From Raillietiella orientalis (Eukaryota), in NCBI GenBank assembly GCA_036172245.1, contig JAYWIR010000016.1, forward strand, positions 1,860,001 through 1,924,000: DNA of 64,000 nt. Reading direction: 5' to 3'. The translations under genes were made by a program, and so were the position numbers. Below the pieces are notes generated by a model that saw nothing but the letters and a program-made list of their open reading frames with translations, was not told the origin of the DNA and did not search any database. Position 1 is the stretch's first letter, and every line of letters starts with the position of its first letter. Below, in pieces: positions 6,761 through 63,804 of the stretch.

Positions 6761-6771
6761 CTCGAAGCCTA

Positions 6772-18000: not shown

Positions 18001-21000
18001 ATTATGGCGATCCAAGGCGTCCAAACAATTCAAAACTTTAAGAACTGTTGATCCTAAAATTACACAGCTTCATTCCAATTCAATTCACCTTGACAACAAT
18101 TTTGTTAATATTAAATCTATTAAAAATGATTTGTTCATACATTTTAATGATAAATGAGCAATATAAAATCAAATGATATTCAAAATATATATTAAAGGCA
18201 TTCTTTCACCTATGAATGTTGAAAAGTTATTTCCAAAATTTTGTCATAAAGGATTTCTGGAACACTTTTTCTATAACAAAAATTCAACCATAAAAAACTC
18301 TACCCTATCACTGGATTATTAACCAAAGATCAAGTTGTAAATACACTGATTCATCAATTTAATGTTTCCTTTACTAAAATGATAAATCAATTTAAAATCC
18401 AGATTGAACTGCAGAGAAGAAAATAAAAAAGTCTGCTTAAACTATTTGTCACAAAAGTAGAGCTTTGATCAAAAATTCATCACAATACAATATTGTTTGC
18501 TGTTACTGAGACCAACAAGCAATAATATTAAGTTTGGATTATGCTGCATGCCAGTTCTTCAAGCATTTACAGAATACATACAAAGACAATTCTGTCACTT
18601 GGATATAAGTCCAGCCATGGGAATTCTTTTAGTAAGCTGCTAAAACATTTTGAATCAAAATCAAAATATAATGACAATGCATCAAAATAAACATTGCCCT
18701 AAATTGCATTTTGTCGCCAAAAAAAAAAAAAAAAAACAACTCTCGGAGAAAGCTGATAACCACCTACAAGTAATACCGATTCCTCTAGGTATATTTTATG
18801 CAACAGTGCAAAAACTGCAATTTTCTTCAGAATCTAAATTTCCTCTTTGGCAAAGGACTCGAAAAATTACGCTTTCAAATTAGTAAAGCAAGAGATGGAA
18901 TCAAGAGCTATGGATATTCACTTTATGGATATTGCAAAACGCCGAAGGCACACTGTGCAGCATACACATGATCACTTTATTTCACTATTTTTGTCCTGCA
19001 TAATAATATGTCCATACATTTAACCATATGCTGCTCTAATTGTGAAAATTTAATATATGAAAAATGACCTTTCTACCTGTTACACTCTCTTGAAATCTGG
19101 CAGCCGACCATTTATCTTCAACTGCTTTACTTCTTAATTTAACTGCATATTCGGCCATCCGCAAGCAATTCCTTAATAGAGATATTATTATAATCTACTC
19201 TGATGGCACATAAAAGCATACACAAGTTCATTATATAAACATTCTTATGGTTGTTGTGCCACACTGTATGAACAATGTTAAGAAATGAGAAGTCTTTAAA
19301 GAATCAAAATGTTTCCAATAACAATATACTACAATAACGGAGTAGCAAAAAATGGTGGATAACTACTTTAGAAATAAGTGCTTTCACAAAACTAATCTAT
19401 TAATCACAAATTCTATATGTTATCAAATAATGCCATACTTGTTTAGCGCATTTATTCATTCATAAAGTCTGAGAAGTCCTATCCATGTTTTATTAAATTT
19501 TATCTACTAAACCTTAAATCTCCCACAATCTAAAGCCTATGAAAACTACAGTCTAACTGTAATTTTGCCGACAAATTAAAAAGTAAATGGTCACTGTAGC
19601 ATGCAAGGCCTCACCTAATTTGAGCATTATCACTTCTTATGGGCATTGGCAAACATGAAGGTGGAACACAAAGATAATCCAAAGGAGATCCATTCAATGA
19701 TTCTATGATTCTATCATCTTCAAAATCATGCCACACAAGAGCTGCAGGGCACTCTAAAAGGATGGTCTGAAAAATGGTCAAAGCATCTGTATCACAGAAA
19801 AGCAAAACAAAACAATAAATTTTCACTTTTAACGTATTTTTATTTTCATTAATGCATCCTGGTTTTAAACCAGCCTTTTGTAAGAGAAAGGCAAGTAATG
19901 AGAAATAACTTGATAATAAGATAGTTCTACAAACAATGACTTGAATAAAATTTTATTTATATATGTAATTGTTTTGTGCTTGTACTATTCACTGAAATTC
20001 ATCACAATTAAAATTTTATGATCTCGGTTTAAAGACACATGCTTCTCAACATTTGAAATTAATTAGTTTTACTTTGTATTACCATACACAAGCTCAAGCT
20101 CACAAACATAATATTAGTACTTAAATTTAAAATAAAAATTAGACTCTTGATGTACACGACAAAAATACCTAATCTAAAACATGCACTCTTATAAAAATGT
20201 TTGGCTATTTATAAAATTAAGAAATTAATTAACAGCATTTGCATTATGAAAACTGAAGATAAGTGAAAAAATATTAAATGCATTACTTGTATTATTGCAG
20301 ATAATATTAAAATCATATTTTGATGATGCTGACAATTCAAATAAGATCCAAATATATTGTTTGTTGTTGAACTTGATGAATTATTCCTAAAATGTACATG
20401 GAGCCATATAAGTTGCAGATCAATGGAAGCATCTTTCTGGATAAAAAAAATTTTTCTACACAACTCGATAATTCAATTCATGAAATAAGCTCGAAATTCC
20501 TTATGAATATTGCTCTTGAAACTTGTTCCAGGTACACAGCTCTCAAAACCCCAAAAGTATACATTTAATTACCCATCCATTTGATTTGCCGAGAGAGGAC
20601 TTGAAGCCTTCATTGGAACTGAATCCCATAGGAGTGACAATTTCAATGCACAAAAATATGTCAACTTCCTTGCTAAAATTTCACACTGCACAAATTCCTC
20701 CATATATTGCAGCACCAATGGAAGCAAATATTGCAAAATACTATCTTCAAGTTGTTTTGTTTTTTCTAAGGAATCCAATAACCAAGTCAAAAAATCCTGC
20801 TTGTCCAGCAAACCTTCCTGAATATATAAGATTACAAAATTAAAAATAGAAATTCTAACATCATGTTTAAATACAATGCATAACATCATGATCAGTTGTT
20901 TTAACAGTACTATAAAAGCTTGAATATGCATTAATAGAAATAATATACACAGCAACTAGCATATGCAGACTTAATTGAATATGCATCACGATCAACATTT

Positions 21001-23594
21001 TTGGTAATTCCGATTCCACTGTTGATCCCCACAAGATTTACATGATATTTCATTATATGAAATAAGGTATCACCTGTGTTAATTCAAAAACACATGAAAG
21101 GAAATTCAACAGAAGATCAGTCCTGGCAATTTCAGATTTATATGCTAGCTAATTGAGATTTGAATTTGCAAACTAAATACCATTTAAAATTAAGTTTTAT
21201 TAAAAACTTGAATACATATAGCTTTAAATTCTTAATGTCCAAAATATTTAAGCGTCTAACATTTCAACTTCCGTCAAAAAATCAAAAAACATTAAAAGAA
21301 ACTAGATTTTTCATTTATCTGAATTATAAAATCTCAGCTCCTTGTGCAAATGCAGCTTCATATTTTGATTCTAAATTTACCGCCACGATGTCAACTTTTA
21401 AATTCTAAAATTCTTTAACTTCATGCATATAATTTCGCTTTCATATGGAAAGATGTTAACGAAACATACGCATAATAATTAAAATTATTCCACAGATAAC
21501 AAATAATAAGACACCAAGTAAAGCACACAATGGCACAATTACAGTAGATTTTTGATGATAAAGTGAATTTGAAGTTTCCCCAATTTTTTATGACTGTCAA
21601 TTGGGATTCTGAAGCCCCACAAATAAGTGCATAAATAGATAAAACTTTCTTTTGATCCTAAGCTTTTGATTTAAACTTTCTTACACTGAACTAATGTGTT
21701 GATGAACTGATTAAACATAAGCTACATTTAATAGAGTGCATTGCAACACAACTTAAACGTATACTTTTTCTATAAATTATTGAGCTGAAAATGTTCGATC
21801 ATACTTTATTTCCTCAATGAATGCTAGTCAAAAAGCTTATTAAATCTGCTCTTGGATTTTTACTTTAAAGAAAAAATCCATCAGCAGCTGAAAATTCAAT
21901 TTTTTCACAGCATTCTAGTTAATTATTCTTGGACATTAAATAAAAGCACAATATGACAAAAAAATTAAATAATTAATGAAGTGCATAATAATTAAATGAT
22001 ACACTACATGAAAAACAGTGAAGGGCAAACAGCAAAAAGCATGTAGCCAAACCAAATTACCACATCAAATAATATGAATAGAAATTGTTACAAGACTATT
22101 ATGTTCATTCATCAATATTTCTACAAACCTCATACATATATCTTGCTAATCTTATACAATATTTCCATTGTTTTAATGCAAGTTCTGTATCATTAGTAAG
22201 GGACACATTATTTGACGAGTCTTGTAATTTCTGCAATTGTTCTTTCAAGTACTTGGTTAAATTCTGAGTCCATTCTGTGAGCCGAAAATTAATTCAAAGA
22301 ACATATTTAATCCAATAAAACCTTGTGAAGGATCAGGTATCTGTCGCTTTTTTATTTTTGCTTCTGATATTGCTGCAGAATGAGCTGATGTCATTTTAAT
22401 GAACCAAGCTGCTCGAGTTAAAGGAATATCAAATTCCGACAATGTCATAAAAATATCTTCTTTTTTGTTATAAATCGGAACCTAGATACCATCATTTAAA
22501 ACATGGCTGAATAAGTCAACTTTAAGAAAATGCTTACTTTTTTGGATAATAACAAAAGAGATTTATCTCCAGCTAGATCCTTAAACCACGTCTCTATAGC
22601 ATTTTTTGATCTACCAGTGACTGCCCAATTGTCTTTGGTATTTATTTGTTGCCTTTTTCTTCCAGTATCAGGCAATGTATTCAAATCTTGTTTTTTACTC
22701 AGTATAGTATTAAAATACTTTCCCACCTAAAAAAGGATGAAGACATAATAAAGAACACTTCCCATTCCTCATATTGAAATTTTTATACTACACAGTATTG
22801 AACTTGAGACAAATGTCTCCACAAGGAGCAAATGAAAATCTAAACTTTAAGATGCTTTTCTCTATAATGAAGCTCAAACAAAAGATCTGAACTAACTGTG
22901 GCAGCTGATATGTTGTATTTGCATGCTGAACCAAATTCTGCATCTGATAACTGGGGACTGTAAGAAAATCCTTGTTTCACGTTCACGTTTGTTAATTCAT
23001 CCTAAAATTATTTAAAAATGTTCATGAAGTACACATTTGATTTTTCATAATACGGTTCATTGGCATAAAGTTATTTGATAGAATTTCTTTTATCTTAAAT
23101 AAAAAAAATTAAAAGGAAGGTTTCCATTCTTTTCATTCCCTTTGAGACAAAAAAGAAGAAAACAAACAGATAAATTAATGCTACAATCTGGGCTCTCTTG
23201 TTAAACATATGGAAACAAGATTACAGTTGAATATTATTGTACAAAGATATCTTCAAAATACGTTGGTATCGATAAAAGTAATAAATCATTGAGATAGCAA
23301 ATGTTTTAAAACTGTGGAACTGAAAAGGAATTCTTTGAATGTGCACAACTGAAATAAATAATCTAAAGATACCAATGATAACCATGATTAACATGAACCA
23401 TGACACCATGATTTCAGGCACATTGAATGTTCTAAATTGAGGACTTATGACCATTGGTTGAAACAAACATTTTACAATAGTAGAAAACACACTCTTACTT
23501 CTTTCTGTTTGGGATCCTGAGGATATAAATCGGGTGGACCTAGTCTAGGTCGTTTGAGGGCAGTCTTCTCCATTGAAATAAATGGAGCAAACAT
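9096..23594 (-). CDS. MED12: Mediator of RNA polymerase II transcription subunit 12 (kohtalo), multi-exon
   Basis: Exon 1 23594-23499 [32 protein letters not shown]; exon 2 23001-22897 [12 protein letters not shown]; exon 3 22726-22538 [19 protein letters not shown]; exon 4 22481-22322 RAAWFIKMT; exon 5 22274-22129 EWTQ. Later exons: [91 protein letters not shown]. Gln-rich last exon 9242-9096 ends in TAA. The introns I checked are GT-AG and in phase. Confidence 0.97.
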
Positions 23595-23949
23595 GGCACT
23601 ATATTTTTCCAACACAATATATACTGCAAGTTTGGCAGAAAAAAATTACGGGAACCTCAACTACATGCTGGAACTCACCATTAACTTCATTAAACTTTCA
23701 TTGCAGTGTACACAGTGTATACTTCAATAAAAAGGATCGTTGTAAGGTTAACTTCTTGATGCCCGGGTTTCTCAAAACTTTGCAAATCATTGCTAACTTA
23801 TTCGATTTGCAACATTCGGTACTGATCGACTTTGCGCTGTAAATTACTACACGATGTCAACTTAATACCGCCTGGAACAGAAACGATGTTAGTCGCCCTG
23901 TTCGAAGCTTCAAAATGAATCTTTCAACTGTTCTCAACTGCTTCACACT

Positions 23950-24800
23950 CAACGACGCTGATTATGCTGTCTTGTCGACGGAGATTCCGATCCAACCCCA
24001 ATTTAAGTTTGTTTGCGTTTCGTTTAAGCAGCAACTCCAACCCAAAACACCACGATCCCTTCTCCCTCTCTCTAAGCCCCCCGTTCAACAACGGCCTCGC
24101 TGAAACGACAACATCGCCGTGCGGATTCGGCAAAGGTCCCCGACGGAGAATCACTTCCCACGAAATGGGAAGGTGTTTCGGTGTTTATGCTGTTTCCAGA
24201 CAAAGCACATTCGTTCCAAGTCTTCCGGATCTATGCTCGCAACAGGAATGTAACCGAATCGAATCGATTCTTACATTGCAATGCCACGAAACCCCGGCCC
24301 GAGAACCCACACTCGGATTAGCAGTGCAATTTTTCGACTTATCCCAGACGACGAATCGGTTTCCCGAAGGGCTCGTTTGCAACGAGCTGATTGAAAGTCG
24401 GGACCTGTGGTGGCCAGGGAGCGTGCTCGAACCTACTCCTTGTCGAAAGTCCAACCCCCTGCTCCTTCCACCCTCCTGTCCCCCACCTACCGAAAACACC
24501 AGCTTCCCGGAGAAGGAGGCAGTCGGCCCTACTTTCTCAGGAGTTCAAGACGCTGACTACGAACTCGGATTGCCTGCCCCGACGGTTTCCTTCTGCCGCG
24601 AAGTATGTTTGGAAAACCATGACGGATTCTGTCAACGATTCTGTTCGAAACGACAAGGAGGAAGAAAATGGAATCCACGAGAGTGTGCAAAAGCTCCCTA
24701 CTCCCGAGGCTTGTGATTTCGAAATGCACGCACTGGTGGCCCAGGAGAGGAGATGCCGACTGCTTCTGGGCCTTTTGGCTCAGGTCGAAGTGGAGGTGGG
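23950..24800 (+). mobile_element. BEL/Pao LTR retrotransposon pol remnant (end of RNase H and linker)
   Basis: CNRIESILTLQ...NRFPEGLVCNELIESRDLWWPG resembles the BEL pattern NRV.EIQ...NPAD..SRG....L....LWW.GP; next frame gives RFPSAAK...(cf. RFSS..KL). Confidence 0.55.
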
Positions 24801-27279
24801 ACGAACTTCAGCGTCTCTAAATTGAAAACCAAAACAATGAAACCCCAAGCACAAACTGAGACGTTGCAGCAAGCCAAGTGACTCATAATACTTTATTTTA
24901 ACCAGTTTCTCCAATGTCACAACGACCAGCTGAGGATAATTACTGAAGCAATGCACAATAACATGGTAACAGCGGAGGATAGTTGGTATCACCAGGCAGA
25001 GTATTTTTGTTAGCTTCAAGGTAGAACGATGTGAAACAACTTTCCTTCGACTTCAACTCATTATCAGATAGTATTAAATAAACAAAAGCCTATAAATAAT
25101 CACTATTCACCGAAATGTCCTATAGCTAAAGATTGGCAGAGAAGAAATATCTGAATGCTTTTTTTTCCAAAGTCTAACAATTGCTTGAATTTTTGTTTTG
25201 GAAAATGTATACGTGAATAACTTAATTTAATTTCAAACGAAACTTTGTTTGATTCTTGTTTTCCCTTTCAGGGGGAATGTAGGTTTTCGGATATTAACAA
25301 CTGAAATGAGCGCATCTCAAAATCGAGGAATTAAAGCAATCCAACGAAAACAAGATTCATATTTCTGCTTGTAGCAAAAGAAATATAAATGAAATACCAG
25401 CAATAAAACTGATACAAGCACGAGATATTCCACAGCAAAACCGCCAAATCAATTGTGATTCCTGAGTAATTACAAATACGGGATGAAATCCTGATAATGT
25501 TACCACGGTCTGAAGAATCGTTTGAACTTATTGAAGAAAAATAACCAATGAAGCCTTATTCATTGAGCGATGAAAAGTTTCGTTTATTTATTACGAAAAC
25601 ATACAGCGTTAATGGAAAAAAAACTCGCTTTTTAAATTGCACTATTTCGCTTGCCTACATTAGTTTCAAATATCACATGCAATAACTGGAATGTATGAAT
25701 CGAAGAGTAATAATAAACTATATTTATTGCCATGGTCAATGCCATGATTTCAAAATAATTTTGCCAACATTTGCAGTATGATCCTTCTTTCTTTGGAAAC
25801 ACACTGCTGATTACAAGTTTGTTTTTACGTTCATATCTAGTATAGATAATTTCATCATTTCAAAAAAGTTTAAATATCACACCATGTCTCAATTCTCCAT
25901 TCAGCCGCTGGAATTTAGGAACCAAAAAATAAGAATAGAAAATCAGAGCATTTCATAGGCATAAGATTATTAGAAAAATAGGGTCAAAGAAGAAATTTAG
26001 GTGAAAGTCTATGAATTCGTTTTCCAATGTATATTTTCTGCTTTGCTGTATATATTCCTTCGTAGTGATACAGTGAAAAAGAACGAAAATGTATTTGGTT
26101 AAAACGAGGTTAGAAATGGAGCATTTATATGCATACTGAATTGAGGTTTCCTGGAATTAATGACTATTTGTGCGTCGTATTAATACGATTCTCATAGTTA
26201 CCTATGAGAATACCTTCAACCGTATAAAAGGAAAAAATTGTATAGCAGAATCGTTAGTATTAAATCTGTTTCTTCACTTGCCTGTAATTGGCGCTGTAAA
26301 TCTTTTTTGCCATATCTTGAAAGCTAGATGTCCTTCCTATACCTGAAGCATTATAGAGGAAGAGTCAACACTAGTCTGCCTCCTTTTGTATTTCGATACA
26401 AATTGCTCTTGAAGGCTTTTCAACTAATGTTATATAATCCCATCCATATGGTTAACGCAAATACACACAAGTCCCATTGGAGAACTGAACCAATTTTAAG
26501 AATTACTAGATTTATAATTTTTAATAATAAAACCGACAGCAAAATGTGGATTTTTGTCCACCTCCTATTGCTTCTGTTTGAAGACTTTGTTTGATCACAC
26601 CTTTATTTTTTATCTATAATGTCCTATCGCTCAAAAATGAGATTCTTTTCTTCTCCGGCTTCAAAGATTGATCTTTTCCTCAGAAAAATCTTATTTAGAG
26701 AGATAAATGCATTTTTCATACCTATTTTATCTTAGTCACGAGCTCGAGATTTCTATGAAGTTTTAAGGATTGACTCTTTCTAACAAAGCTCTATCTAACT
26801 ATAATAAAACCTGCTGACTTTTGAATTAGATTTGGAACTGATTTTCTGTCATCAACATGACCTTTCGTTAAATTAACCCCTTGAATTTCACCCTTTTCAT
26901 TGATATATAATTTGCAACCATAAAACCAACTAATAGTGATTTTTTCTATTTACGCAATTCCGGCAAAAACTTGAATGAATAAAGTAGAAATAGAGATGCT
27001 ATATGCAAACAACATATTTTCCTTATTTCGAACAAGAATTCTCCTTCAGCTTGTAGTTTTTATTGTGTACGGAATTGAAACCCGATTGAAAAGTGATCGA
27101 GAGTGGGGGGGGGGGGGGAACGCAAAACATTTAATATATTTTTGCTTGTGATTTTGTTTTTTTTTTTTTACTTTTTTGTGTCTGAAGGAGGCAAAGTCGG
27201 AAAAGTCATTGAAACGTCGCTGATCATAACCTCATTGCAAGAGAAAAAGCAACTCACACGTAAAAAAAAATGAAAATGA

Positions 27280-30200
27280 AAGTGGGGAACTCTGCATTGC
27301 TGCGAAACTGCAATGAACATGGCACCATTCACAAGCGATTATTCCTGTCCTGAATGTAGTGAATCACAAACTTGCTGCTACTCGAATTTCATAAATAACA
27401 TGACCTGAACTTTCAGGACGTTTTTGAGAATTCCAAACTAGATTGAGGCTATTGCGAAAACGTACATTTTAATAAAATTCATTGCTAATGTCAACAAATA
27501 GCTCATCGTCATGTTAACGTCTGGCAATCACTTTTAGGTGGACTTTAAGTTCAGTAAGTCTGCTTCGTTCAGGAACCAACTTGTGAGAATTGCTTTCATT
27601 TTGTTGGGCACATACTTATGACACTTTTCGTACAGATACGTGTTTTCATTATGGTTGCGATCGATGCAAGCATCCTTGAAGGGGAGAATCGGTGATCTTT
27701 TCCGAGCTGTCCTATCGTACACTAACGCGTGTGAGTTGGGTGCACTCTTGGGGTCGTTTTCCGCAGAATAGATTCTCAAATTAAGGTTATTTATCACCCG
27801 GATATGCCGGGGCATTTATTATTCTAATTTATTAGAAAAATTAGATAATAAAGTCTTTAAAAAATGTTTTTTGTGGGGGAACACTCGGTTCTCCCACGCT
27901 GCAGAATTCTCGTTACCCGGTCCTTAGACCGGAGAGGTTCTCTCCCTAGGCGCGGGGGAAGGGGAAAATCAAACAAAGAAACAAAAAGAGAAATAACGGG
28001 GAGGGGGAATAGTTATATGGGGGAGTGGAGGGCAGGGAGGGGATCACTGAGCGCCTGGATTGGTCCTCTGCATCCTCTCCAGGATGCAGACAAGTCTGTT
28101 TTTAACGTTATTGCTAGACGCCACCTTGTCGCCGTCTCCAAGGAGATCGTCGTCCAGTGGATGGCGTCCCTACATCTTTGGCCTCTTCTTGCGTTCCACC
28201 TTTGCACGATGCCGCGCACGCAGCAGAGAACTGCTAGAGACGCAGCGGGGCTCAGGCCGTCACGCAGAAAGAGGCGTCGGTAAATGTCCTTAGGGTCGCC
28301 TACTGGAAGATGGAGGATTGGGGCGATTCGACTCCAGAGTCCAACCAGGGCGACACACTCGAGGGTAAGATGCGGGAAGGTTTCCCTTTCACCGCACTCG
28401 ACGCATCGGGCATCCACATTCCCCAGTGTCCAGTGAGACAGGCGTGCTCTGCTTAACAGTCCCCAGTGCAGAAAGAGCAACGCCGTCTCCTGCCACGTCA
28501 ACGGAAGGGTGCCGCTATCCCAGCACGCTGGGGGCCACTTCACCTCCTCCGGAGGTATTGCGAGCAGCTCTCCCCAGCGCGCAAGTCCGTGAGGCGGGAC
28601 GCTCGGGGTGGCAGCGTCCGCTAGCTCCCGAGTCGTCCACGCCTTTATTGGTTTTCTCCTGCCTCGGATGAGGCAGGACACCTCCCACGATGCTCCCTCG
28701 TTGCTGCTCCTAATGTTCTTCAGGGAGGACAGAACGGGGGCAAGGGGGCTGAACGAAGCCCACAGAAACTTCCGGGGAGTGTTGATAATCTCCTGCAGCG
28801 GCTGTCGAGAGTACGATCCTCGACGTAGGCAGTTGTATTCTGCCTCGCTCGTGCCGTTGATCTTAGCCCACGTGGAAACTGACTCCTGAAGCCAGGCAGT
28901 GCAGTTCGCGGGGAGGCAGGAGATCCAGGTATTCTCCCTCATCAGGGCGACCATCTGGCTCAGATGGAAGCCACAGTTGTTGTTGAGGCTGCGCTGGTAG
29001 GCCACGAGGATCGAGGACAATCCTTCGCAGCCGGTCGCTCTTCTGGCGAGGAGCCGTGCGGGTTCGCACCATGGCGTCATCCATAAGCTAGCCGCAAGGG
29101 CTAGCTTCCGAAGGTTGATTTGTTTTTGCATGCGCTCCATCGTCAGGAGGCCCAAACCACCGTCCCTGCGTGGAGCGCACAAGTCTTTCAGTCGGACTCG
29201 CGACCTCGCTGTGCCCCAAAGGACAGTCCTCAAGAGGGCTTTGGTCCGTCTCTGTATGATGGGAGGGGCGGGGCAAACAAAAATTGAAGGGGCGAAGGAG
29301 ATGAGCCGCGAACGCGTTCCACACCGCGGCCCGTTCCTGCAAGTAAAACTTGCCATTCCGGAACGGGCCGATCGCCAACTCCACCTTTTGAAGACGGTCG
29401 GACCAGGCTCTTGCAGCGCAGAAGTCCCCCAAAGGAACGCCAAGGTACTTGAAGCACCTGCCCGTGGGGATCCCCAAACGGATCCAGTCCGGCCGTCCGG
29501 CCCACGCCGTAGTCGAATTAAGGTTATTGAAACAGTTGCGAGGTGTATCGCATTTGTTATTGGTTTCAGCAGCCTCAGAGCTAATGAACACGAGCAGCGA
29601 CAGAAATTTTACGTCGCAACTTTTCGTGAGGCATTCTCCGGAGTGCTGGCCTAAGAGATCCGGACAGTATGATTGAAGGCTGCTGAGCTCGAAAAATCGA
29701 AGCACAAAGAGTTCTCAAAAATCGTTGGTCTACATTAGATCCGTTAGTTCGCATTTTCTTGTGAGGACTTTCACTTTGAGGAAAAATTGCTGGTAATGAT
29801 CCAAGTTCACGGAATGGAGCTTCCTTGTTCATGCTCGTTTGCAATCGAGCAACTTCGCGCCGGTTGAAGTGAATAGGGAACACTGAATTCCGGGAAAGAA
29901 AAGGAGGAAATGTAGACAGAACAGTATTTTCCTATCAAATGCCAGAAGCGGTGGCAAACTTTAACGACTATTACGTTAACCCATTGGTTCTGGTGGAGGA
30001 TTGTTGCTTTCATGGGTCCGATGGTCTTGATGATGCATATGTGCCCAGTGATTGGATTTCTGGATTTTCTGCATCGTATGTAATCATGAATCAGTTTCTG
30101 GACCATGTCTGCAGCCAGTGAGCACGACGAATGGGGAAGAGTTTGAAGTTGCTTTCAGCAAAAGTCGACTTGACTGAAACCAGTTTCTTTTCTCCTGCCC

Positions 30201-30940
30201 ATCTTCTGGCAGCGATCATCTCAATGTCCTCTGTAAAACCTTGTCGTTTTGCCAAGGTACCATAATCAAACTGGCTTTCTCTGGACTGCCGCGTCGAGTT
30301 TAATGTGTTCCCATTACACCGACAGCATTCCTGGTATCCCGAAATGCAGATACTGATCGCATCTACCGATCCGTCTTTTGTCGAGTGGAATACAAAAGTG
30401 GCGCCGCCCTCGGATGACCTGCGAGAAAGAAAAGGCAGCCTCACATTTGTATACTTATTCGTATCTCCTATTTTCTATACTACTCCAAAGTTCAAAACTC
30501 GCAACTCCCCATATTCTCAAAATTGCCTGGTGCTATCATCCAGTTCATTTAGACAGGAAGACTTGGTTCTGATTTCTGAAGCAGAGTCGATCTTTCATTG
30601 CTCCACGTGCTGCGTTGGCTTGTTCTCCATCAACCAGCCCATCCTTGGGCTCAGCCACTCTTTGCATTGCTAAATAACAGACATACTGCTTGACCGTCCT
30701 CTTGCCCATTCCGTTTGCGTGATTCCCCCCTTCCACTTTTCCCCTTCTATTGTCTCTTCTTGAATTTGAGCAAAAGTTTTGCCTATATCGGCAGAAATAA
30801 CCTTTCTCCGTGTACAGTCGCCAACGCTTTATCGTTGTATCAACAACACATACACTGGATAAAGTTCCGTAGTTCTGGCGATGGGGTTGATGATAAGCAG
30901 AAGAGATTGATGTTCCTATCAGAACTGATGTATGCACACG
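27280..30940 (-). mobile_element. BEL/Pao LTR retrotransposon pol remnant (RT-RNase H), interrupted by a LINE at 27792-29515
   Basis: Ordered relics: IKRWRLY/ISADIGKTFAQIQ (cf. LLRWR...SADIEKMF.QI); YLAMQRVA; EIQSLGTYASSR (cf. LHGF.DAS); GAKLL; FVLRFFELS...ECLTKSCDVKFL (cf. FV.NRV.EI...AD..SRG). Many stops and frameshifts; the extent left of the LINE is less certain. Confidence 0.6.
27792..29515 (-). mobile_element. 5'-truncated L1/Tx1-type LINE (copy A) with perfect 13-bp TSD
   Basis: CFKYLGVPLG, RVRLKDLCAPRRDGGLGL and CVECGERETFPHLTLEC; one frameshift near 29265; 3' UTR with AATAAA and terminal hairpin; flanked by AATTAAGGTTATT at 27779-27791 and 29516-29528. Confidence 0.92.
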
Positions 30941-30942
30941 TA

Positions 30943-31080
30943 AAGAACTTTCCCGGACGGGGCCATAACTGCATTAGAAGCACGCCCAAAAGCGGGTTAT
31001 GGAGTCTAGCAGGATCGTATCCTTTTTATGCTCAACCGCTCTTTTAGCGTTTTCTATCACGATTTCTGCAAACCGTGCCT
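30943..31080 (-). pseudogene. rho: Fragment of bacterial transcription termination factor Rho (Walker B region)
   Basis: Translates as RH..[26 protein letters not shown], then after a 1-nt insertion FGRASNAVMAPSGKVL; E. coli Rho as recalled has [48 protein letters not shown]. Confidence 0.85.
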
Positions 31081-31254
31081 GACGCTACCCAAGCATTCAT
31101 GGTAAATTAGAATAAATCAGTTTTTTATGGCATAACGGAAACCTCCGATTTTCAAGGCAAAATCATATAGTAGTTGCAGAGAGGCGATCCTGCGGTCAAC
31201 TTGCATACTGAGACATACGATCTATTGGGATGATGAAAATCCTTCTTTTCTGTC

Positions 31255-31970
31255 TTCGCGGTTCTTCGACACGGTTTCGCGCCACCCGAGGGTGAGTAAT
31301 TCTTGAAGATAGGAAGTACCCCGGGAGGCGTCCGGCCTATGAATCCAGGAAGGACTCGGAGTCCGTTCCTCTCACGCCTGAGGAGGGATCCCCGGAAACG
31401 GAGATCACCTCCACCCTGGTTGTTTCCGAAGGGGAATACAGAAGGGAATCGTCCTGCCGTATTCTCTGCGAAGAGACCCTTGGAGGGGTCCGCTCCAGCT
31501 TTTCTCCTCGGAAGGGAACTCGGAAGGGATTCGATCCTGTTTTTACTACTATGAAGAGAATCCAGAAGGGACGCTTCCGAAATTCAGAAGGACGCAGCTT
31601 CCCCGAAGGGATCAGCTCGCTTCTCTGCACTCTCTGGAGAGGTGGTGGCGACACACCTGCCCTATCAGTACGACGCGGAGGGTCCCTCGGAATGGGGGAT
31701 CCGCTCCTTTACAACCGGAGGGGAGCTCCCACTCCGTGATTCTTGGAAGGACCCGGAGGTCGACTTCCATTGGTCCCGGCCCTCATCGGGGGAATCCGGT
31801 TGCAACCGCTACCAGTGGCGCACCCGGATGAACGGAGGCCAGCCATCGTCATCTTTTAGGGTGAACTCGGAACCCACAGACGCACTGCGTCGATTCCTTC
31901 GCAGTATTAAAACCCACGTCGTATGGTGCCACGCGCAGAGACCACCGTAACCACACGACCTCCGACGCGG
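31255..31970 (-). repeat. LINE ORF1-tail repeat, copy 2 of 3
   Basis: Homologous to 53700-54570 (PMEVDLRVLPRITEW vs TMGVDHRVLPGIKEW; SEFRKRPF in both) and to 6190-6760. Confidence 0.85.
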
Positions 31971-32551
31971 GCATCGAAGTTTGATTACTGCGGACAGCAG
32001 CAATATGGCTAAGCAGAAGCTTTCCAAAACGAAGTCGAAATATGCAAGCAGTAAAAACACTGGTTTGGTTGTAAACTAGAGAGCGGCAGTGTGTACAGCT
32101 TTACCAAACAAAATTATATTGCTGTCTTCATGAATTTTTCATTTTTTTATTGGAAACGCTATTGTAAGCACAGCACCAGCTTACCGAGAAAACCTAAAAA
32201 ATCGTGTTCTGCACCCACTCGAACGACTTTTACTTCTTAACCCAAAGTTTATGCGCATATACTGCAAAGTGTGCTTGAATGAGAACTTTTTTTCTATCTC
32301 TTCTACTATTTATTTCATTGTGTATAATGGTTCTGTTCATGCGCCACAAAGAACAAGAATTACGGCACTTACAAATACACAATAACCACTTCAGTGCACT
32401 TCCTAATTAACCCTGAAAAATTGAGCAATGAATAAGGAAGCTTACAAGATAAATATTGTTTGTTTCTAAAACCCGCTTTATACATATTAATCGGGTGTAA
32501 CGTAGTTTAGCTGCAGCCTCCAAGGAGATGAGGACTTGATGAGATGAAGTA

Positions 32552-35500
32552 TTAACTAATTTTAACACTTTTGACAACCGTCGTGCGAATTCCGGATATT
32601 TCTCCACCGTATCGGTTGATTTCAGTTCTTGGCTGTTGCACCTAAAAGAAATAATAAATTGAATGACACACCGGAGTGAAAAATTTCCACGTGATTACCT
32701 GTCCCTTCCTTCTTATTAATGCTTTCCTATATCTAGCCCTTTGCTTTACACGGGGATTTTTGAGCTCTTTTTTGCGATGAGGATTTAAACCCTTGTTTTT
32801 GGCTATTTGATAGTTTATAGCACGCTTTTCATCTGAAGTTATATTTTCAGTTCCTTGAACAAGATCATTTTTCTGTTTCTCTTCCAATAACGCAGTGCCC
32901 ATGTCAAAACTGCGATTGCTATGTGAATGTTGCTGCTTCTTCAAAGCACTACAAAAAAGCATTTTCGAAAGTGGAATTGCATGTAATCAGAATCTTTATT
33001 TTAACAACAAATGCTCCCTACAGAACAAAATCCCCAAAATGTGATATCAGGTGTAGCATAATTAGAGTTACAGGAATTTCAAGTAAGCAAGTAAGCAATT
33101 GTAAAAGTTTTCCACATTACTTTTTAATACTTGTCACATTCACGAAAGCACACATACAATACGTCATCATTCAGAAATGGATAAAAATTGGATGCAAAAC
33201 TCAATTCCTTACTCAAGTTTTATCATACACATACACTGCAACCATAATTTAACTGCTATACGCAAGATTTTACTTGAATGTACAGTTGCAACATGAAAAA
33301 TTAATGTACATCATAAAATCACAGTTTACTTTTATCCACTTTAATCCATTAAGAATAATCTTAGTGGATTAACCATGGAATTCGAATAATAACTTATGAA
33401 TGAAAAGCTATAAGTAAAAATAACTATAAAGGAAATATGAAGTAGAATTACGTAAGTTGATAAGCAGTAAAACTGCACGACGTAGGCAAGATTTACTGAC
33501 TTTTTCATGCTGGGTACGAGTCTGACAGGATGCTTCAGTGCCAAGAGCTGCAAAATTTTTTTTAGCAATGGCTGCATATTTGTGTGAATGGGTTCAAGTT
33601 TCAATAGGAGCTTTTTGTAGTATACAATTCTTTTTAGAACCGGATGAAACTGGACAGCAGTTTTTTTGGCTTTAAGCAAAATATAATAGCACAGATACAT
33701 GGAATAACTGAAACATATTAAAATCATCCAGATTGGTATTCACATTACTTCATTAATACGAAGTATGTTGTAGATATATATTCACACACATCATCATCAA
33801 TTATCTTGCTGTCTATTACATATGTGTACAAGCATTCAAAAGTTTGCAAGTGGGTAAGTTGCACTGAAATATAAAATCGTTTTCAAACATACATGAAAAT
33901 TTTGATAATATGATTTGTAACATGTACATAAATGAAATCAAGAACCACATTGTTCAAAACAATAAAAATAGTTTTTTTTTCCAATAAGTAATACATTAAG
34001 AATGGCATTGATATAAACGAAAAGTATATTTATATCACTTGTGTTTTTAAAATCTATCACTGATTATTAAATGAATTGCCTTTGTGCAGTACAAAAATAA
34101 GAGAAATACGTATATTTTCACAAGTATATTTCAAAATCAACTGCACAAAATCAGTACAACTACCAGGGCAGATTCTTATTACCAAAACAATAGCAGTTCC
34201 AACATAACAGCACGTGATGTGGAATTTGCACGGTAATTTTCGTTTTAAAATCTTATGCAATGAATATGTGATACTCAACAAAACCAGATGAAATTATAAT
34301 CGAAACCTGGCATTCAGAACAAGACAAATACTTCATGGTTCAGTATATATTTTAAAAAGCAAGTGCTTGATATTTAATTTTACACCTGCAATTCATAACA
34401 AAAGAATGCAAAACATTGTTAACTAAATCAAAATTTTTTTTGGCTGCAAAGAAATTCACAAAACAAATTATTAAGATGTAAAGAAAAATATCCTGTAATC
34501 AGGTTTTCATGTTATCTTGGAAGTCAGTTTGTATTTCTTATTTCATAAAGTGATACTTCATTTGCAATACTTTTGTTACAATTTGAGGGCTTACAAATAA
34601 CAAAAAAATACTTTCGCTTTTAAAAGCTAAAATAAATAAATAAAGTCAAATTTTAATTTAAAAGCTAATCGAAACAGAATACCCTCTAATCTGAAAAATG
34701 ATCATTAAGACGGCAATAAATAAGTTTTTCATAAGAGAAACGCAACTGTGATCTAATAAATTGGCCCAAATAAGTACAATTAAAAAATTCTGAACAGGAC
34801 ACTAACAATTAGAAGCCAAATGATTTTATAATAACCATTTATCCTTTTGAGACTCTATCTAGAAATCTAGTAAATAAATAATTATAAACTGATTAATCTA
34901 ATCATCCCATTTCATGACATAAATGTATCTCTGACGGAAAATAAATGAAATTACATTCTATCTTGACAGTATTCCACTAGAAACAACTGAATATCTTGGT
35001 TCAAATGATTCGAGACTACATAAAAAAATGCACAAAAAGAACTTTTCCGTAGCTCCAAACATTTCTTCAACCTGTCATTCCTTAGAGAGCCACCAAAATA
35101 AAGCCTAGCTCTCATTCTCTTAATAAATAATTTTTTACATAAAAATTTGCAAAGTTGTTCGTTATCTACAGTCAACCCAATCTCTTTGAAGGAATACATC
35201 ATGCTGGTGATGAAGATAAGCACTATATGGTAAAACAACTCAACATTCACAAGTGCAAATGATCTGAATGCGAAGCACATTAAACATTCAACTTCTAATC
35301 CAAATACCTTGGAAATCTTTCAAAAGATCGACTAATTCAGGAGACTCTTCAAACAATAAGTCAAGTTTTTCTTTTTGAGATAGTGAAGATATATCTAATT
35401 TTATTGCTGAATCACATTGGATTGCTTTCTATAAAATGTATAACTTCAGATTTTGGTATTAATGTCCACATTACATTACCTCTTTGTTTTCTATAAAAAC

Positions 35501-37025
35501 AGAAGTGCCATAAGCTTCTTCAATTTCATGTAAAAGTTTTTTTTGAATCTGCAAAGCTTCTTCTTCTTCTAGCCTTGCAGCTTCCTCTTCATCAGAATCT
35601 CGGAATCTGTCTAAATATCAAAAATATGACCATTATCGCTAATTTTGGTATTATGCCTTAATTAACAAAAATTTGAGTTATATAAAAAAATACCTCCATA
35701 ATCTTCCTCTATGTAATCAGTATTATAAAATGACTTTTTTTTCCCCCCCCAGCTTTTATTGTCCAACATTGCTGCTTCTTCCACATGATTAACATCATTA
35801 TCATTTGTATTTTCAGCTATGAAATCATCTTCAGAAGTTTCATGTGTTGCATCTGGCGATGTTGGAAGATTGAAAACATACTCCTAAAATTTGTTGTAGA
35901 CTGTGAAAGTAAATTTTTTAATACCTAATTGCATAGCACTCATAAATATGTATAGAAAAAATATCAAAGAATAAACGTAAACTGGATATAGAAATACATT
36001 ACAATAAAAGTATTGAAAATCAAAACTGATGACGATCAGTCAACAGTCTTCAAGATCTTCAAGAAATATCTATCAAAAAAAGAGCAAATGGAAAATATTC
36101 TGAAAGTTATTTGAAATATGAAAATTCCGTTTTTCAAACAGGATAGTTAAACTTTTGTATTTGTAAAACTGCACTTTTCAAACGAAAATTCAAATTTATT
36201 TAGAATTTAATTATAATGAAGTTCTAAGATTCCATCACAAGTTTAAAAGAATCCAATATAACATAGTAACTTCAACTTTGGCATGCCTAACCTTTGATGA
36301 TTAATCAACTATGCAATAATTTGGCATTTGCTTAAATAAAAATTGCACAGAATAATTAACAAACTAATCATAAAAATTATTGATTTTGATCCACTGATAA
36401 AAGAATGCTGACACCATATTAAGCAGTACAAAAATATCACAGATGGAATAAATACCTCCTCTGAAGAATCCTCATTCCTAAAATCTCCTTGAATTCTGAT
36501 TTTGCTGGAAGTGTTATCATCATCATCATAGTCAACAGAGTCAGCATCACTTGCATCATCTGTATAGTCATCTGGTTCTTGATCAGGAAACTTTCTAAAA
36601 TTAAAATCCACGTTCTCAGATCAATTAAACAACACTAGATAACCAATCAAACTTTACTATGCTTCACAAAGCAGTTAACAAACCACATCTAATTGCACTG
36701 GCAAATGAAACACTACCAATTCGAAATTAATCTGAATAAGCAAATCAAACAAACAAAAAGAAAGCATGGAAAAAGCAATACACATGCAAGAAGAGCTCTT
36801 GGAACATCCAGAGAAAAGCAGTGAAGTAACTGTTCTTATTCTTTCATTAACTGAAAGACTGATTGTGTGCCTTTGGTATAAACAAGATGCTTTTTATAAA
36901 TAGAAAAAAAGAAAGACATTCTTTTCCTGAAAATTATGGAATTAAGGATAGATATTTAAAGTCTATACGTTATGTTGCAAATTGATCACACAAATAACTC
37001 TCAAACATAAGTAAAAAGAAATGAA

Positions 37026-37061
<36 letters not shown>

Positions 37062-38997
37062 TACATACAGTGAATGGAGATGACTGAAAAAAATAAAAAT
37101 AAATAAAAAACCAGGAATTTAAAACAATAATTAATATGCAACTGTAAAGAGATCTTAATTTTTTTTTTTATATTTCTATATAATACATTTCTAAATGAAA
37201 AATTACTATCAGTGGTGAAAACAACCAGATCAAAAACTGTGCATGGTGACTTAACCTGCAAAACTATTGTTTATTTTAAACTATCAATTATGAAATGAAC
37301 AAATTATTAAAACTTAGATACATACATGGTAAGCTATACAAATTGAAACATGTTTTATCAATCAAAACATGTATCTAATCAAGAATAATTCGTGGATCTC
37401 AACAAATTCTAAATAAATAGCTAGAAAAAACATGAAACAGATTGAAACATAGCACACTTATGTAATACTGTGTAAAGTATAAGCTGTAAATGAAAAAAAT
37501 ATACTGCAAGGACTGTTGGGGGTTCAGTATTTTTTTAAGACTAGTAATCAGCTTGATCAGCAGTCATGATTGAAGTGAAGCTGTCAAAATAAACTAATGA
37601 ATGCTATTTGCATGAATTCAAAATCAAAGATGAAGTGTTTCATGGATGCATATGTTATTTTGAAATCCAACAATGAAGATATGGATCTGTCACACAGAAG
37701 AAAATACCAACTGTAACGTATCATGATTACCACCATTATCACTTACAAACTTCATCATCTTACTATGTTTACCCATTGTCTCCTAGGGTAGATCATGATC
37801 TGGATCTGAGATGTGCATGACAGAAGCATCAAATGCAAATTCTTTGAATACAAATTACGAGACCTTTTTCTCGAGAATAATATTTAAGGGCTAGAATTAC
37901 AAAGCATACCTAATTAAATACTATCTATGCTACCATATAGAAAACAAAACTCTGTATTTATGCATGCTTGTTGCACAGTTATTAAAGTATTTTAAAGGCA
38001 AATGTCTTGAAAGATCTTTATGTTCAGCACTGCCCATATGAGACTTCAAAATTTCAAGTTAAGAATTGCAACCTAACTAGCACATCTTTTTACATACGTT
38101 TATGAATACATAAAAAGATCTCTGATTATCTTTTTAGGCAGAAAACTACAGGTGAAAAAACTAAACAACATAATTTTTTTATTGCTGTGATACAAAAACT
38201 GGAACAAAGTGGAAGTCCTTATCTACTATGAGACATACAGCACCATGCAAACGAAAAGTGATAGTACGAGGATACAATCACTTTTCTATACAGCTTCCAA
38301 TTCATTTATTAGATTTTAAAAATTGACAAATTGTTATGAAGAGTTAGAGAATGCTAGTTAAGGTACCTTTTGGAAAAGGAAGTATAAAAACGTTTGAATG
38401 ACAAATCAACAGAACATTTCTTTGGCAAGTTCAAAGAGTCTCCAAGTAACTTGGTACAAATATATCAGACTGCGGTCCTCGCTAAAAATCCGAACATACT
38501 ACAGAACAAAAAAATAATTCTAAGTCTTTTCATAAATGTAAATTCTGATAGAACTTTAATCATTTTAAAGAGGGCAAGATTATCTCCTCAAACAGATAAT
38601 ATGCACGCATACATTAATACTTTTTGCATCACAAACACTCCCAAAAGTTATCTGCTTTGCAAATCACGTGAAAACAACAAAAAAACAGAATACCAAATTA
38701 TTTGGATCCTTTTTACTTTGCACACGATCCGGGCTTATTCCTTTTTAGGAAAACACATTATTATGTCTGCATTATTATGTCTTCCAGATTTAATAAAGTC
38801 GTGTGGATTCAAAGTTAACCAGGGTACAAAAAAAATTTGCCATGGAAAACCGACAACAATTTCTACATTGCTAACACCAAATGTAAAACCTAATCTCAGC
38901 GATGCAGCCAGACTCAGATTCTTTACCTTTTGGTTGTCACTTGTAACTTTGTTCCAAGGGATTTAGGGGGAGCGGATAAAGATTTTTTTTTCTTCAT
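32552..38997 (-). CDS. UTP3: Something about silencing protein 10 / UTP3, SSU processome subunit, multi-exon
   Basis: Probable exon 1 38997-38927 (MKKKKSL) splices in phase to acidic exon 36594-36456. Then WGGKKKSFYNTD, EEEEALQIQKK, ESPELVDLLKDF, YILLKAKK...HPVLKRI, Sas10 C-terminal KRAINYQIAKNKGLNPHRKKELKNPRVKQR and last exon RYGGEISGIRTTVVKSVKIS*. Confidence 0.93.
37029..37068. repeat. (AC)14(ATAC)3 compound microsatellite in UTP3 intron 1
   Basis: Read directly from sequence. Confidence 0.95.
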
Positions 38998-41599
38998 ACT
39001 TTCAGTACAAGTCTCTTTACTCGTTTCTCCACGCAAACACTCGTGCCCACAGCAAGAGAAAATTTAGCTTTACACAGTAGAGCCAAGTACCGTAAAGTTC
39101 ATTTCTATCATTTATCATATAGCCTAGAATCGGCAAAACACTCGAAAGAAAAACTCATTGGGACCTCGAAAAATTATTGTACATTTAGAAATTCAAGAAT
39201 TTCCTTATTTTCCATTTTTATATTACTCGACTAACTGATCACGATCACTCAGATATTTATAATCCTTCCAAATTTTTCCAGGATTCACACTGCAGTGGAT
39301 TCTTCGGATTCTAGGTAGAGTTTCATGATGTGATGGATTCACGTGTATTGTTCTCATTTTGGTTTTCTTTATCTTTTATGATCCAGCAGACTATTAGGAG
39401 AGTTGATAGAAATAGTGTAGTTTCCCCAGTTTGATAAATACAAGTTGGAGTTATTCAAGCCCATCTTTGAAACAGTTTCCTCTTGAAATATGGCACTCTG
39501 TGTTCTAGGATAGCAGTTCACAGCTTTTTAAATACAGTGAACTGTATTTAAAAGGATGAATAATATAAACCACAAACATAAGTCTAGGAATCGCAATTAA
39601 AACACAAGACATAAGTATTTTGATGTCTTTATTGGTTACTGAATGTTCATATGGATCATATTCTAAAGATCGAATCTCTTTCTACAGTTTTCATCTTCTA
39701 TTGTTTGTATTTCTTTGCAAAGTATAGCGCATATCATTGGTATAGAAATGAAAAGTGTAGAAAGAAAGAATATGTGTCTTTTCCCGGCAATTGTGTACAC
39801 ATTAGATAGAATCCTTGCCTTCAATGTTTTTTTTTTTACACGTGAAAATAATTACTACACTTTTTGGAAAAGTCATTTCTTTCACTTTATAAATCCTTAT
39901 TTCGATGTTTCGCATACCACATTCATTGAATAATATTGATATTCGCTCGTCGTTGCTGACGCCAAATGCTTTGATTGGGGGGGTACAGTTCGTATAAAAT
40001 GAAATAAGTTTTATTAGGATCAGTCGACATTGCAATTCTTTTTTCTGAAATGAATTTTCAATCATATTTCTAACAACTTTTATAAATTCAACAATATTTG
40101 TATAACTGTTAGTAATTTGCTTGTTATCATATCAATAAGAATTAGATGAACAACTGATATTTAACGAAGAGATAGTGAATAACAAATTTGAAATAAATGA
40201 AATGTTCATTAATTTTTCTTCAAATATATATTAAATTATGTTCATGTTGCATGTATTGTTGCTTTGCTTTCATTTCCAAACAACTAATGTTTTACTCTTT
40301 AGAGAAGTAGAACTTTTTTACTTTCTAAAAATGTTAGTGACCAAAACTCTTTGTTTTCTTCAGTCCAATTGCAATCGTTTTTTGTTTCAAATATGCTTTC
40401 AAGGAAATCCCATTTGTATTACATTTCTGACTATGTTATGGCTACAACTAAAATGCATTATCTATTCCAGTTTAAGAAATCCATAACTGCATATTGCCTA
40501 TCAACAAGAAATAGAGTATCAGTTTTGGTGTATTATGTTTTCGATCTTAATTACAAGGTTACCTGAAAGAGTTCAAGGTTCATAATTCATTTCAGATTAT
40601 CATGCAATATCTAATGAAATTAAAACAAATTTCCGAGGGTCCCGGAAGGAATCTTGTACAGCACATCGCTCTACGGAAATAGAGAGAGACGTTGTATGTG
40701 CAAGTGCGAGTTCTAGCTACCACACGACAACATAATGATGAGATTCCGCTTCCTGAAACAAATCAGCAATCTGCGTGTTGGCAAAACTATCGAATATCTC
40801 ATTTGAAACCATAATCCTGTCTTCTGCTTTCGCTAGCGCCTGATTTCGAGTCCCGTCTGTATAAGTGATTGCCTCACTTGGACCTTCGTTTTCTTGGTCC
40901 GTAGCGAGCTATTTCATTCAACTGAATGTGATGCATAAGCACAGTAGAAGCAGTAATTCATTACTGTCAGAACAGGAAATTTTAAATAAGGAATGGGATT
41001 GGGCAGATGGATTTGCTTTGTATAAGGGTCATTGATTAGTCTAACTGTAGATAAGAATAATGAATTTTTAGCATTAATATCAAAGAATTAATCCTCACAG
41101 CACGAGTGTCATTTAAATGATATCCTTCAGCCTTTCAATTTAGAGAAGAACGAAAATTGCCGAAAAGTATACATTACATCTTTTTTCAGCATAACTATGA
41201 TGATCATTGTATGAAAGTTTGAGACTTATTCCATTTCGTTATTAAATATGCACCAGGATAATCAACAGAACTGATAAAGTTTGTACAAGTAAACTGAATC
41301 GTTTCAAAATTCTCTAAAAATGAAAATTTTCAAGTTTATATGGCTACCTATGCGCTTTATAAAGCTCGCGAGGAAAACAAGATAAATTTTCGTTGTAGTT
41401 ATCAGATTGCAGCTCTTTGTATGCTTGATGCTGTACGCTGAACGCTTGGAGCCATACTATAGGGCGGTGATATGAAGTATGGCACGCCAGTTATTGGCAA
41501 CAGGTGATAAGTTGAAGACTTAGTAATCAGGACTCCATGTATATACAATGGCCACTAAGAAAGGATCGGAGATCCTGTGAGGCCAACACGGAAACTGCA

Positions 41600-42080
41600 G
41601 ATAGCCAACTGAAATTCAAAGTGTCTCGTCTTGAAGTGTGTAATTACACGGATCAAATTGGAAAAAATAAGAGAATATACCCAGACTATTCAGTTGTGGT
41701 CAATACATGTTAGGTGGCAGAGACCAAAGCAACCATCTTCCTGACAAAGTGGAGACAAAGCACCTTATTACCCAAACATAATATAAGTATGCAGCTGTTT
41801 CTGTAGATGTATATCAGGGGGCATATAAAGAAGTCCAAATGACAACTGATGAAGTCTCATACTCGGACGGATGGACGACTTTGTCTTTCATAGTATGGAA
41901 AAAGCTGGGAATGTGTCCATGAATTTTCTGAAGCAATTTTCAAAAGGTACAACCAAAGTCATGTGCCATGAAATGACTGCCACTACAAGTGGTCTCTTTC
42001 TATCAGGAGGCTTACTAAAGAAATTCCTGGGTGTTGATTTAATAGAACAATTAAAATGGACTGTCGCCATTGCTTAATTA
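41600..42080 (+). mobile_element. Possible Penelope-like RT remnant
   Basis: GDKAPYYPNI and GRMDDFVF...NFLKQF...E...GLFLS show spacing like Penelope RT (MGSPLAP..ANI; RYVDD...FL..LN...E...PFLD). Weak and stop-ridden. Confidence 0.3.
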
Positions 42081-42325
42081 AGCAGAAATCGCTTTCTGTA
42101 ATAAGACAAATGACATCGCGATGGGCAATCAATTTTTTTTTTACCTGTAGAGAATAATTGATCGTGCAGCTACAGTCACATCAGAAATTCCTCTATGGCA
42201 TGCAAGTGAGACAGATTATTGTCTGGATCCCTCTAGTTAACCTCAGTTCTTTTTGAATTTCAATATCAAAGCAAAAAAAGTCAAATTAGTTCATGCATTA
42301 GCCTTGTTTTTCTTTAATTCCATGA

Positions 42326-60377: not shown

Positions 60378-63804
<3,427 letters not shown>

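Follow-up and report, generated by a model that had tools for sequence, protein, structure and literature searches.

A broken rho fragment among scraps of Wolbachia and phage WO DNA between two animal genes: a probable fossil nuclear Wolbachia transfer

The window analysed here, a stretch of 64,000 nucleotides from Raillietiella orientalis, very probably contains a fossil nuclear Wolbachia transfer (nuwt) that has decayed in the host chromosome, as judged from the DNA sequence. One component is a fragment of the bacterial rho gene, which is accompanied by four further scraps. Each of these pieces is of Wolbachia origin, their frames are broken, their ends are sharp, and all are confined to one intergenic stretch. 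In the assembled window they lie between the exons of MED12 and those of Sas10/UTP3, interleaved with host repeats.

The rho piece spans positions 30943..31087 on the minus strand and comprises 48 codons of Rho that are read across two minus-strand frames. The first-pass annotation had described two blocks separated by a frameshift, and both were found there: the stop-to-stop piece 30977-31084 (-) is block 1, and 30922-30996 (-), in the adjoining frame of the same strand, is block 2. In the PDB, block 1 matched residues 239-270 of E. coli Rho (E 1.2e-6); the top 11 of the 16 sequences listed are Rho, and the remaining five are ATP synthase subunit b (E 2.7-4.2). All three matching families in NCBIfam are Rho as well (best E 2.8e-8). 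The expectation that the best matches would be to Rho, and not to F1/V-ATPase or the pol of a BEL element, was thus borne out, Rho ranking first in both collections. The earlier count of 22 matching residues out of 27 also proved right against the E. coli sequence. Block 2 by itself gave no significant match and only one that was unrelated. A Rho profile made from E. coli Rho and 79 Rho ORFs (80 sequences) was then run over the complete six-frame set of the window, 3426 pieces in all. Block 1 took rank 1 of 3426 (E 3e-10, profile positions 258-289) and block 2 rank 2 (E 0.67, positions 290-305), collinear with block 1 and directly adjoining it.

According to a frameshift-aware alignment, 31084-30943 (-) corresponds to E. 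coli Rho 238-285, with 32/48 residues identical; 34/48 are identical to residues 290-337 of Wolbachia Rho. The lesions of the frame are one extra T, situated in a TTTT run, and one missing codon. The protein alignment score of the piece is 134, versus a mean of 31.8 and a maximum of 47 for shuffled sequences (n=30). With E. coli Rho as a tblastn query against the whole window, the piece was recovered at E 1.6e-7 and nothing else fell below E 0.7; neither tblastn nor the profile search of the six-frame pieces revealed another Rho-like piece elsewhere in the window. The fragment is homologous to the bacterial transcription termination factor Rho (TIGR00767) over a segment of the ATPase domain that spans the VEHKKD and LLDSITR motifs. 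Unlike Rho proteins of that family, it holds only about 10% of the gene, in a broken frame, and includes neither the RNA-binding domain nor the Walker motifs. It is not a functional rho gene, since its alignment with the 470-residue Wolbachia Rho is limited to residues 290-337 and its frame is broken, and the scrap is without function. The VEHKKD motif had been regarded as typical of Proteobacteria; it is not confined to them, its carriers including, by record title, Spirochaetes, Omnitrophota, Acidobacteriota and Planctomycetia.

On both sides, the extent of the Rho match is narrower than could be supposed from faint similarities. A stretch of fainter resemblance (YMIL..SEVSVM) had been read as Rho up to ~31200; it gave no profile match, and a plus-strand scrap of a different Wolbachia gene lies at this place (see below). 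Downstream, an extension of Rho to ~30836 gained about 10 score units in some alignments and was rejected, its 'VVDT' end being that of the phage WO methylase piece described below. A weak residual tblastn match to Rho at 30905-30878 is unproven. Positions 30880-31260 gave no match when searched against E. coli DNA, and a word-index protein search with the fragment, its stop read as X, returned three candidates, none of which scored. A full HMMER scan of the 36-residue block against 1.84 billion representative sequences yielded 0 matches at E<=0.001, because the block is too short for a library of this size.

At the protein level, 80 Rho sequences of many phyla score alike against the piece (115-137, with a core identity of 28-33/48). 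These 48 residues are too conserved for a protein comparison to pick the donor, and DNA is more telling. Using window positions 30836-31100 as the DNA query, we obtained 44 matches at E<=0.01 from 151 genomes of the enterobacterial family (best 72.5 bits) and 19 matches at 1e-5 from 400 scored genomes of Gammaproteobacteria (one more was not scorable), where the best match, at 68 bits, was the centre genome itself and the next reached 59.9. The 201 Rickettsiales genomes gave 38 matches at E<=0.01, the best with 112 bits and 78% identity over 144 nt, and the 98 genomes of the family holding this match gave 43 at 1e-6 (best 113 bits). DNA identity of the rho piece to Wolbachia genomes is 72-79% over ~144 nt. 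When the 13 top-ranked genomes were looked up via their Rho proteins, 8-9 of the 10-11 found bore Wolbachia names and two were without a record; L115 and L123 are named only 'Rickettsiales bacterium' (MAGs). The genomes so named are the Wolbachia of Cantharis cryptica, Litomosoides sigmodontis, Ctenocephalides felis (two), Neria commutata (group E) and Tettigetta isshikii, together with W. pipientis and Wolbachia sp.

The homologous 144-nt segment was obtained from 118 of 119 rho loci, which had been picked from the best matches and a motif scan and are not a random sample. Of these 118 segments, the 13 from Wolbachia-group genomes come closest to the window piece, with 108-111 of 141 sites identical; other Rickettsiales (73-75%) and then Enterobacterales (~72%) follow. 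A FastTree phylogeny of 119 sequences places the window rho as sister to the 13 Wolbachia-group sequences (support 0.907), within the Rickettsiales (0.985), and both residues that distinguish Wolbachia in this segment are also present in the window piece. On these comparisons the rho piece is evidently of Wolbachia origin. Its sister position may be a long-branch effect in a tree that rests on only 141 sites.

Among themselves, the rho segments of the 13 Wolbachia share 89-100% identity and encode one identical peptide, whereas the window rho is 77-79% identical to them, i.e. 21-23% diverged from each. It differs from the Wolbachia consensus at 30/141 sites (7, 6 and 17 at codon positions 1, 2 and 3, respectively), and 17 of the 30 differences fall on sites that are invariant in all 13 Wolbachia. 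Twenty changes run from A/T to G/C versus six in the reverse direction, and the G+C content of the piece is 48.6%, compared with 38.2% in Wolbachia. We read the changes at first and second positions as decay after transfer; the excess at third positions we attribute to a donor that had diverged from the strains sampled. With 17 third-position changes versus 6-7 at the other positions, part of the divergence would have arisen in bacteria, so that the donor may lie outside the sampled Wolbachia.

The borders of the pieces are abrupt. In the 60 bases on each side of the rho piece, 12/60 are identical to the Wolbachia flanks, which equals the chance level, and the flanks of the yidC piece (see below) are likewise at chance level with 12/60 and 17/60; bacterial similarity stops within a few bases of the ends of both pieces. 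Stops, frameshifts or indels occur in every piece longer than the 19-codon core of the trxB-like scrap. A living bacterium as the source is contradicted by the frameshifts, the stops, the lost codon, the 21-23% divergence of rho and the abrupt ends. An old integration from an endosymbiont, as opposed to a contaminant contig, had been suggested before, and the present data argue in the same direction: the nearest DNA is that of Wolbachia, the frame is broken, the divergence is considerable, the ends are sharp, and four companion scraps are present.

These companions were found by searching 24800-32700 as DNA against ten Wolbachia genomes (all candidates scored) and against the 98 genomes of the family (three candidates per genome); the same five places recurred in each search. 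One of them is the rho pseudogene (30943-31087, minus strand), which matches Wolbachia rho in DNA and protein. A yidC pseudogene lies at 31977-32121 (-). Its 48 codons correspond to residues 330-377 of Wolbachia YidC, with one in-frame stop; the DNA is 73-79% identical, at one place per Wolbachia genome, and 33/48 amino acids are identical. The alignment score is 140 versus a shuffled mean of 32.4 and a maximum of 51 (n=30), and the NCBIfam YidC family matched at E 0.001. The rho and yidC scraps are both exactly 48 codons long (144-145 nt) and sharp-ended, which may be explained by coincidence or by a preferred size of inserted fragments.

The DNA directly downstream of rho is that of phage WO. 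This piece, at 30589-30846 (-), contains the end of a ParB-DNA methyltransferase gene and then the start of a small terminase subunit gene. It aligns with the last 31 residues of the methyltransferase (22/31 identical) and the first 67 residues of the next ORF (41/69), and is interrupted by several frameshifts and a stop. DNA identity is 66-73%, with several copies in some Wolbachia genomes. In a collection of 50,697 phage records, 9/9 matching records are Wolbachia phage WO (67-73%, at the methylase junction), and the Wolbachia ORFs under the piece belong to phrog_498 and phrog_57, phage families for the DNA methyltransferase and the small terminase subunit. A continuation of the small-terminase match past residue 67 was rejected, as its score (24) was below the shuffled mean of 29. 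In G811, a Wolbachia of Ctenocephalides felis (L126, L129), the methylase/small-terminase junction was seen at three places, which points to several WO prophage copies, and is followed there by an ankyrin-repeat ORF.

At 26613-26973 (-) we found an IS982-family transposase pseudogene that derives from a Wolbachia insertion sequence and is broken by stops and frameshifts. It shows up to 80% DNA identity over 317 nt (26656-26972, in G828), has many copies per Wolbachia genome and corresponds to residues 152-276 of the IS982 transposase (65/126 amino acids identical; NCBIfam NF033520, E 3e-8; Pfam DDE_Tnp_1_3, E 1e-8). The fifth piece, at 31111-31195 with a core at 31111-31167, is a scrap of an FAD-dependent, thioredoxin-reductase-like (trxB-like) oxidoreductase gene that was detected as a Wolbachia DNA match: identity is 81% over 57 nt (G705) or 75% over 85 nt (G807), and the encoded protein matches at 13/19 residues, with a score of 68 versus a shuffled mean of 29.9 and a maximum of 38 (n=30). 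The matching Wolbachia ORF hits TIGR01292 with E 1.5e-40, under the curated cut-off. This scrap lies on the plus strand, opposite to the other four pieces, which are oriented alike and in the same way as the host retroelement ORF described below.

No Wolbachia genome among those searched shows synteny with the pieces; rho and yidC are ~123 kb apart in one of these genomes. As a control, 1-5100, 5000-24900, 32600-52500 and 52400-64000 were compared with five Wolbachia genomes, and one exact 24-nt match was the only result; apart from it, the remaining ~56 kb of the window are without a match to these five genomes. Positions 29600-30600 gave no phage match, and Wolbachia matches of the two long ORFs there were absent or weak (E 0.005 and 0.048). 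Six NCBIfam matches to small unrelated families (E 0.012-0.035), obtained with 131 six-frame pieces, were taken as noise.

For the host genes, a Pfam search was carried out on 87 long ORFs of the window. MED12 exons lie at 17.7-21 kb (-), Sas10/UTP3 starts from 32645 (-), a sorting nexin is encoded at 48.9-52 kb (+), and a trypsin domain is present at 63.0-64.0 kb. Host ORFs carried little taxonomic signal: the trypsin ORF gave no match in one search and only a weak pointer to arthropods in an atlas search, in which a MED12 exon gave nothing informative. From the layout of MED12 and Sas10/UTP3 it follows that the rho piece sits in an animal intergenic stretch. The central claim of the first-pass annotation, a bacterial rho fragment between two animal genes, therefore holds, with matches to Rho only in the PDB (apart from the five ATP synthase sequences) and NCBIfam, and MED12 and Sas10/UTP3 as flanking genes in Pfam. 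G+C content along the window is two-phased: it amounts to 57-73% in 1-7000 and 52000-64000, where long ORFs are open in most frames and the trypsin-domain ORF is located, and to 27-39% in 11000-24000 and 32000-42000, over the MED12, UTP3 and sorting-nexin genes. G+C-rich islands at 24000-25000 (~51%, near the 5' end of MED12) and 42000-45000 (50-54%) are embedded in A+T-rich DNA, with several frames open and no family match. Rfam and tRNA scans of the window found nothing.

Between the Wolbachia pieces lies a host retroelement ORF of 531 codons without a stop (28016-29608, minus strand), which has a reverse transcriptase zinc-binding tail of the non-LTR type (zf-RVT, E 1.3e-4, under the gathering score); its one match in a protein search, an RVT_1 protein, is 51% identical along 32% of the query. 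A G+C-rich host repeat at 31196..31976 (strand not assigned), present in contigs of the run called X1 here, separates the yidC piece from the rho group; it has no family match in Pfam or NCBIfam. X1 is the one public run that contains part of the stretch. It stems from a relative, at low depth and with a share of 0.10 of the sampled words, and its contigs were compared with 27500-33500. No RNA run with this stretch was found, and X1 is not on record as RNA. Contigs of X1 fit 27701-29509 (the retroelement) at 85-95% identity and, by depth bins, ~31118 to 32320, also at 85-95%; the pieces shown for the latter start at 31288. Many contigs lie over the G+C-rich repeat, from the 31118-31318 bin through the 31922-32122 bin. 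While the host repeats are covered in this relative at low depth, 29510-31117 is without cover. The retroelement ORF may belong to a recently active element because of its 531 codons without a stop and its repetition at 85-95% in X1. X1 depth is also non-zero in the bin 31922-32122, which includes the yidC scrap, and the fit of one contig stops at 32131, ten bases beyond it; the yidC scrap may thus be shared with a related organism. For two segments that adjoin Wolbachia scraps, 29610-30590 and 26973-27700, no match was found among the host repeats of X1, in Wolbachia or in phages.

A BEL reverse transcriptase relic had been reported near rho. It is absent from the 56 six-frame pieces from 26.6-32.1 kb that we searched with Pfam, i.e. 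all 49 of at least 45 amino acids from 27.5-30.6 kb and seven at or beside Wolbachia-derived scraps; the matches among them are to zf-RVT (the non-LTR-type ORF) and to a bacterial DDE transposase only. As for BEL/Pao cargo, no adjoining reverse transcriptase, protease or integrase was detected in these 56 pieces, and the place directly next to rho, where a collinear retroelement had been assumed, is occupied by the phage WO piece. Given the lack of a BEL/Pao reverse transcriptase in these pieces, capture by a BEL element is without support. Around the Wolbachia pieces we detected no shared flanking repeats, terminal repeats or target duplications, and no junction microhomology was identified.

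More generally, the scraps could be cargo of a host mobile element or repeated unit that copied an older Wolbachia insert, the locus being one copy of many. We consider this unlikely, although the stretch is rich in host repeats (27701-29509 and ~31118 to 32320, at 85-95% identity in the relative) and four of the five Wolbachia pieces share their orientation with the retroelement ORF. The depth of X1 in 31922-32122, together with the fit that ends at 32131, also leaves the option that the yidC-like piece may be repeat-linked in the relative. On the other hand, neither terminal repeats nor duplicated flanks surround the pieces, and no BEL/Pao or other eukaryotic-type transposase adjoins them. 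The lack of X1 cover over 29510-31117, i.e. over rho, the trxB-like scrap and WO, despite cover of the adjoining repeats, speaks against such cargo as well, but weakly because X1 is from a relative at low depth.

An artefact of assembly or polishing that merged reads of a live bacterium with an animal contig, or a contamination, is very unlikely in view of the broken frames, the 21-23% divergence and the non-bacterial flanks. The junctions are taken from the assembled sequence, and two of the pieces measure ~144-145 nt, near short-read length. Yet DNA from live Wolbachia should have intact frames and be nearly identical to one of the sampled strains, whereas the window rho reaches 77-79% where 13 Wolbachia reach 89-100% among themselves, and stops or frameshifts affect the pieces longer than the 19-codon trxB-like core. 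Moreover, non-bacterial sequence begins within a few bases of the pieces, and there are five of them, from unlinked loci amid host repeats. Just as improbable is a donor among other proteobacteria, e.g. an enterobacterial symbiont, with the Wolbachia likeness of rho being an effect of composition. The even protein scores of the 80 Rho sequences would be compatible with such a donor, and Morganella rho attains 71% DNA identity over 142 nt. DNA scores, however, are 98-113 bits for Wolbachia versus at most 72.5 in the Enterobacteriaceae and Gammaproteobacteria searched, the window shares the two Wolbachia-distinguishing residues, and composition opposes the match, the window piece being the more G+C-rich. 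The yidC and IS982 pieces likewise match Wolbachia, and the neighbouring piece matches phage WO only, which makes another donor very unlikely.

In the preferred reading, a fossil nuwt, Wolbachia DNA including a WO prophage and an IS982 element would have been inserted into a chromosome of the germ line, downstream of the 3' end of UTP3 and upstream of the 5' end of MED12. The inserted DNA would then have decayed without selection, with host repeats now sitting between the surviving scraps, and what is left would be scraps of ~60-360 nt, a patchwork whose source genes are far apart in Wolbachia genomes. The DNA may have arrived in fragments and, like mitochondrial inserts, been ligated into a chromosome break by end joining; alternatively, deletions and the insertion of host transposons may have pared down a larger insert. 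Sharp-ended, short scraps from unlinked loci fit either route. We infer one insertion event instead of several, and an age of the insert of roughly 10^7 years or more. The age estimate is based on the ~14% change at codon positions 1 and 2, where the 13 Wolbachia share one protein sequence, and on neutral rates taken as general background.

With less confidence, and as rather unlikely proposals, the patchwork may record an ancient Wolbachia of an unsampled supergroup, may predate the split from the relative, or may be a one-strand, piRNA-cluster-like 'archive' of foreign DNA. A lineage outside the sampled supergroups is suggested by the window rho branching beside, and not within, the 13 sampled sequences. 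An origin before the split of the related species would be in line with the X1 contig that may reach through the yidC piece, and the archive reading derives from the orientation of four of the five bacterial scraps and of the retroelement ORF, which is that of both flanking genes.

NUMTs, NUPTs and multi-donor capture at chromosome breaks are known to produce short unlinked pieces that are end-joined side by side in intergenic DNA, with sharp ends. The window resembles mosaic NUMTs/NUPTs in that several short pieces from unlinked donor positions are joined intergenically with sharp ends; it differs from them in that the donor is a bacterium plus its phage and that no junction microhomology or target duplication was identified. 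WO-bearing Wolbachia are mostly arthropod strains, and the phage WO piece points to a putative WO-bearing donor.

Published reports describe 227 genes and gene fragments of Wolbachia as nuwts in Brugia malayi (PMC3849323), document nuclear Wolbachia transfer in Drosophila ananassae, and put Wolbachia transfers at ~20% of genome projects (PMC4299567). As in the nuwts of these two hosts, which lie in a host chromosome, the Wolbachia DNA of the window includes gene fragments, most of them non-functional (PMC3849323, PMC4299567); here they are placed between host genes in the assembled sequence. The nuwts of B. malayi and D. ananassae are recent, closely resemble the resident strain and are in some cases very large or duplicated (PMC3849323, PMC4299567), whereas the window pieces have 67-81% DNA identity to sampled Wolbachia and amount to ~1 kb in total, scattered over 5.5 kb. 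Another parallel is offered by the Wolbachia fossils of Dictyocaulus viviparus, described as residing in a host that perhaps no longer carries Wolbachia (PMC4046930), and by those of filarial nematodes, for which a further report notes that short, neutrally evolving Wolbachia pieces are hard to assign to a supergroup (PMC12693587). Like these fossils, the window pieces are short, neutrally evolving Wolbachia sequences that record past infection (PMC4046930, PMC12693587), and supergroup assignment is as hard for them as in the filarial nematodes (PMC12693587).

Nuclear Wolbachia transfer is a well-known class, and the case presented here is an old, small and fragmented example of it. It introduces no new principle, because such transfers have been widely reported in arthropods and nematodes. 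It was possible to trace a 140-base remnant of a housekeeping gene of bacteria, found in an animal contig, to a named symbiont genus, and the neighbouring DNA, including phage WO, corroborates Wolbachia as the source. For the host, the scraps would document that Wolbachia infects or once infected it, and they would serve as a small marker that can be dated.
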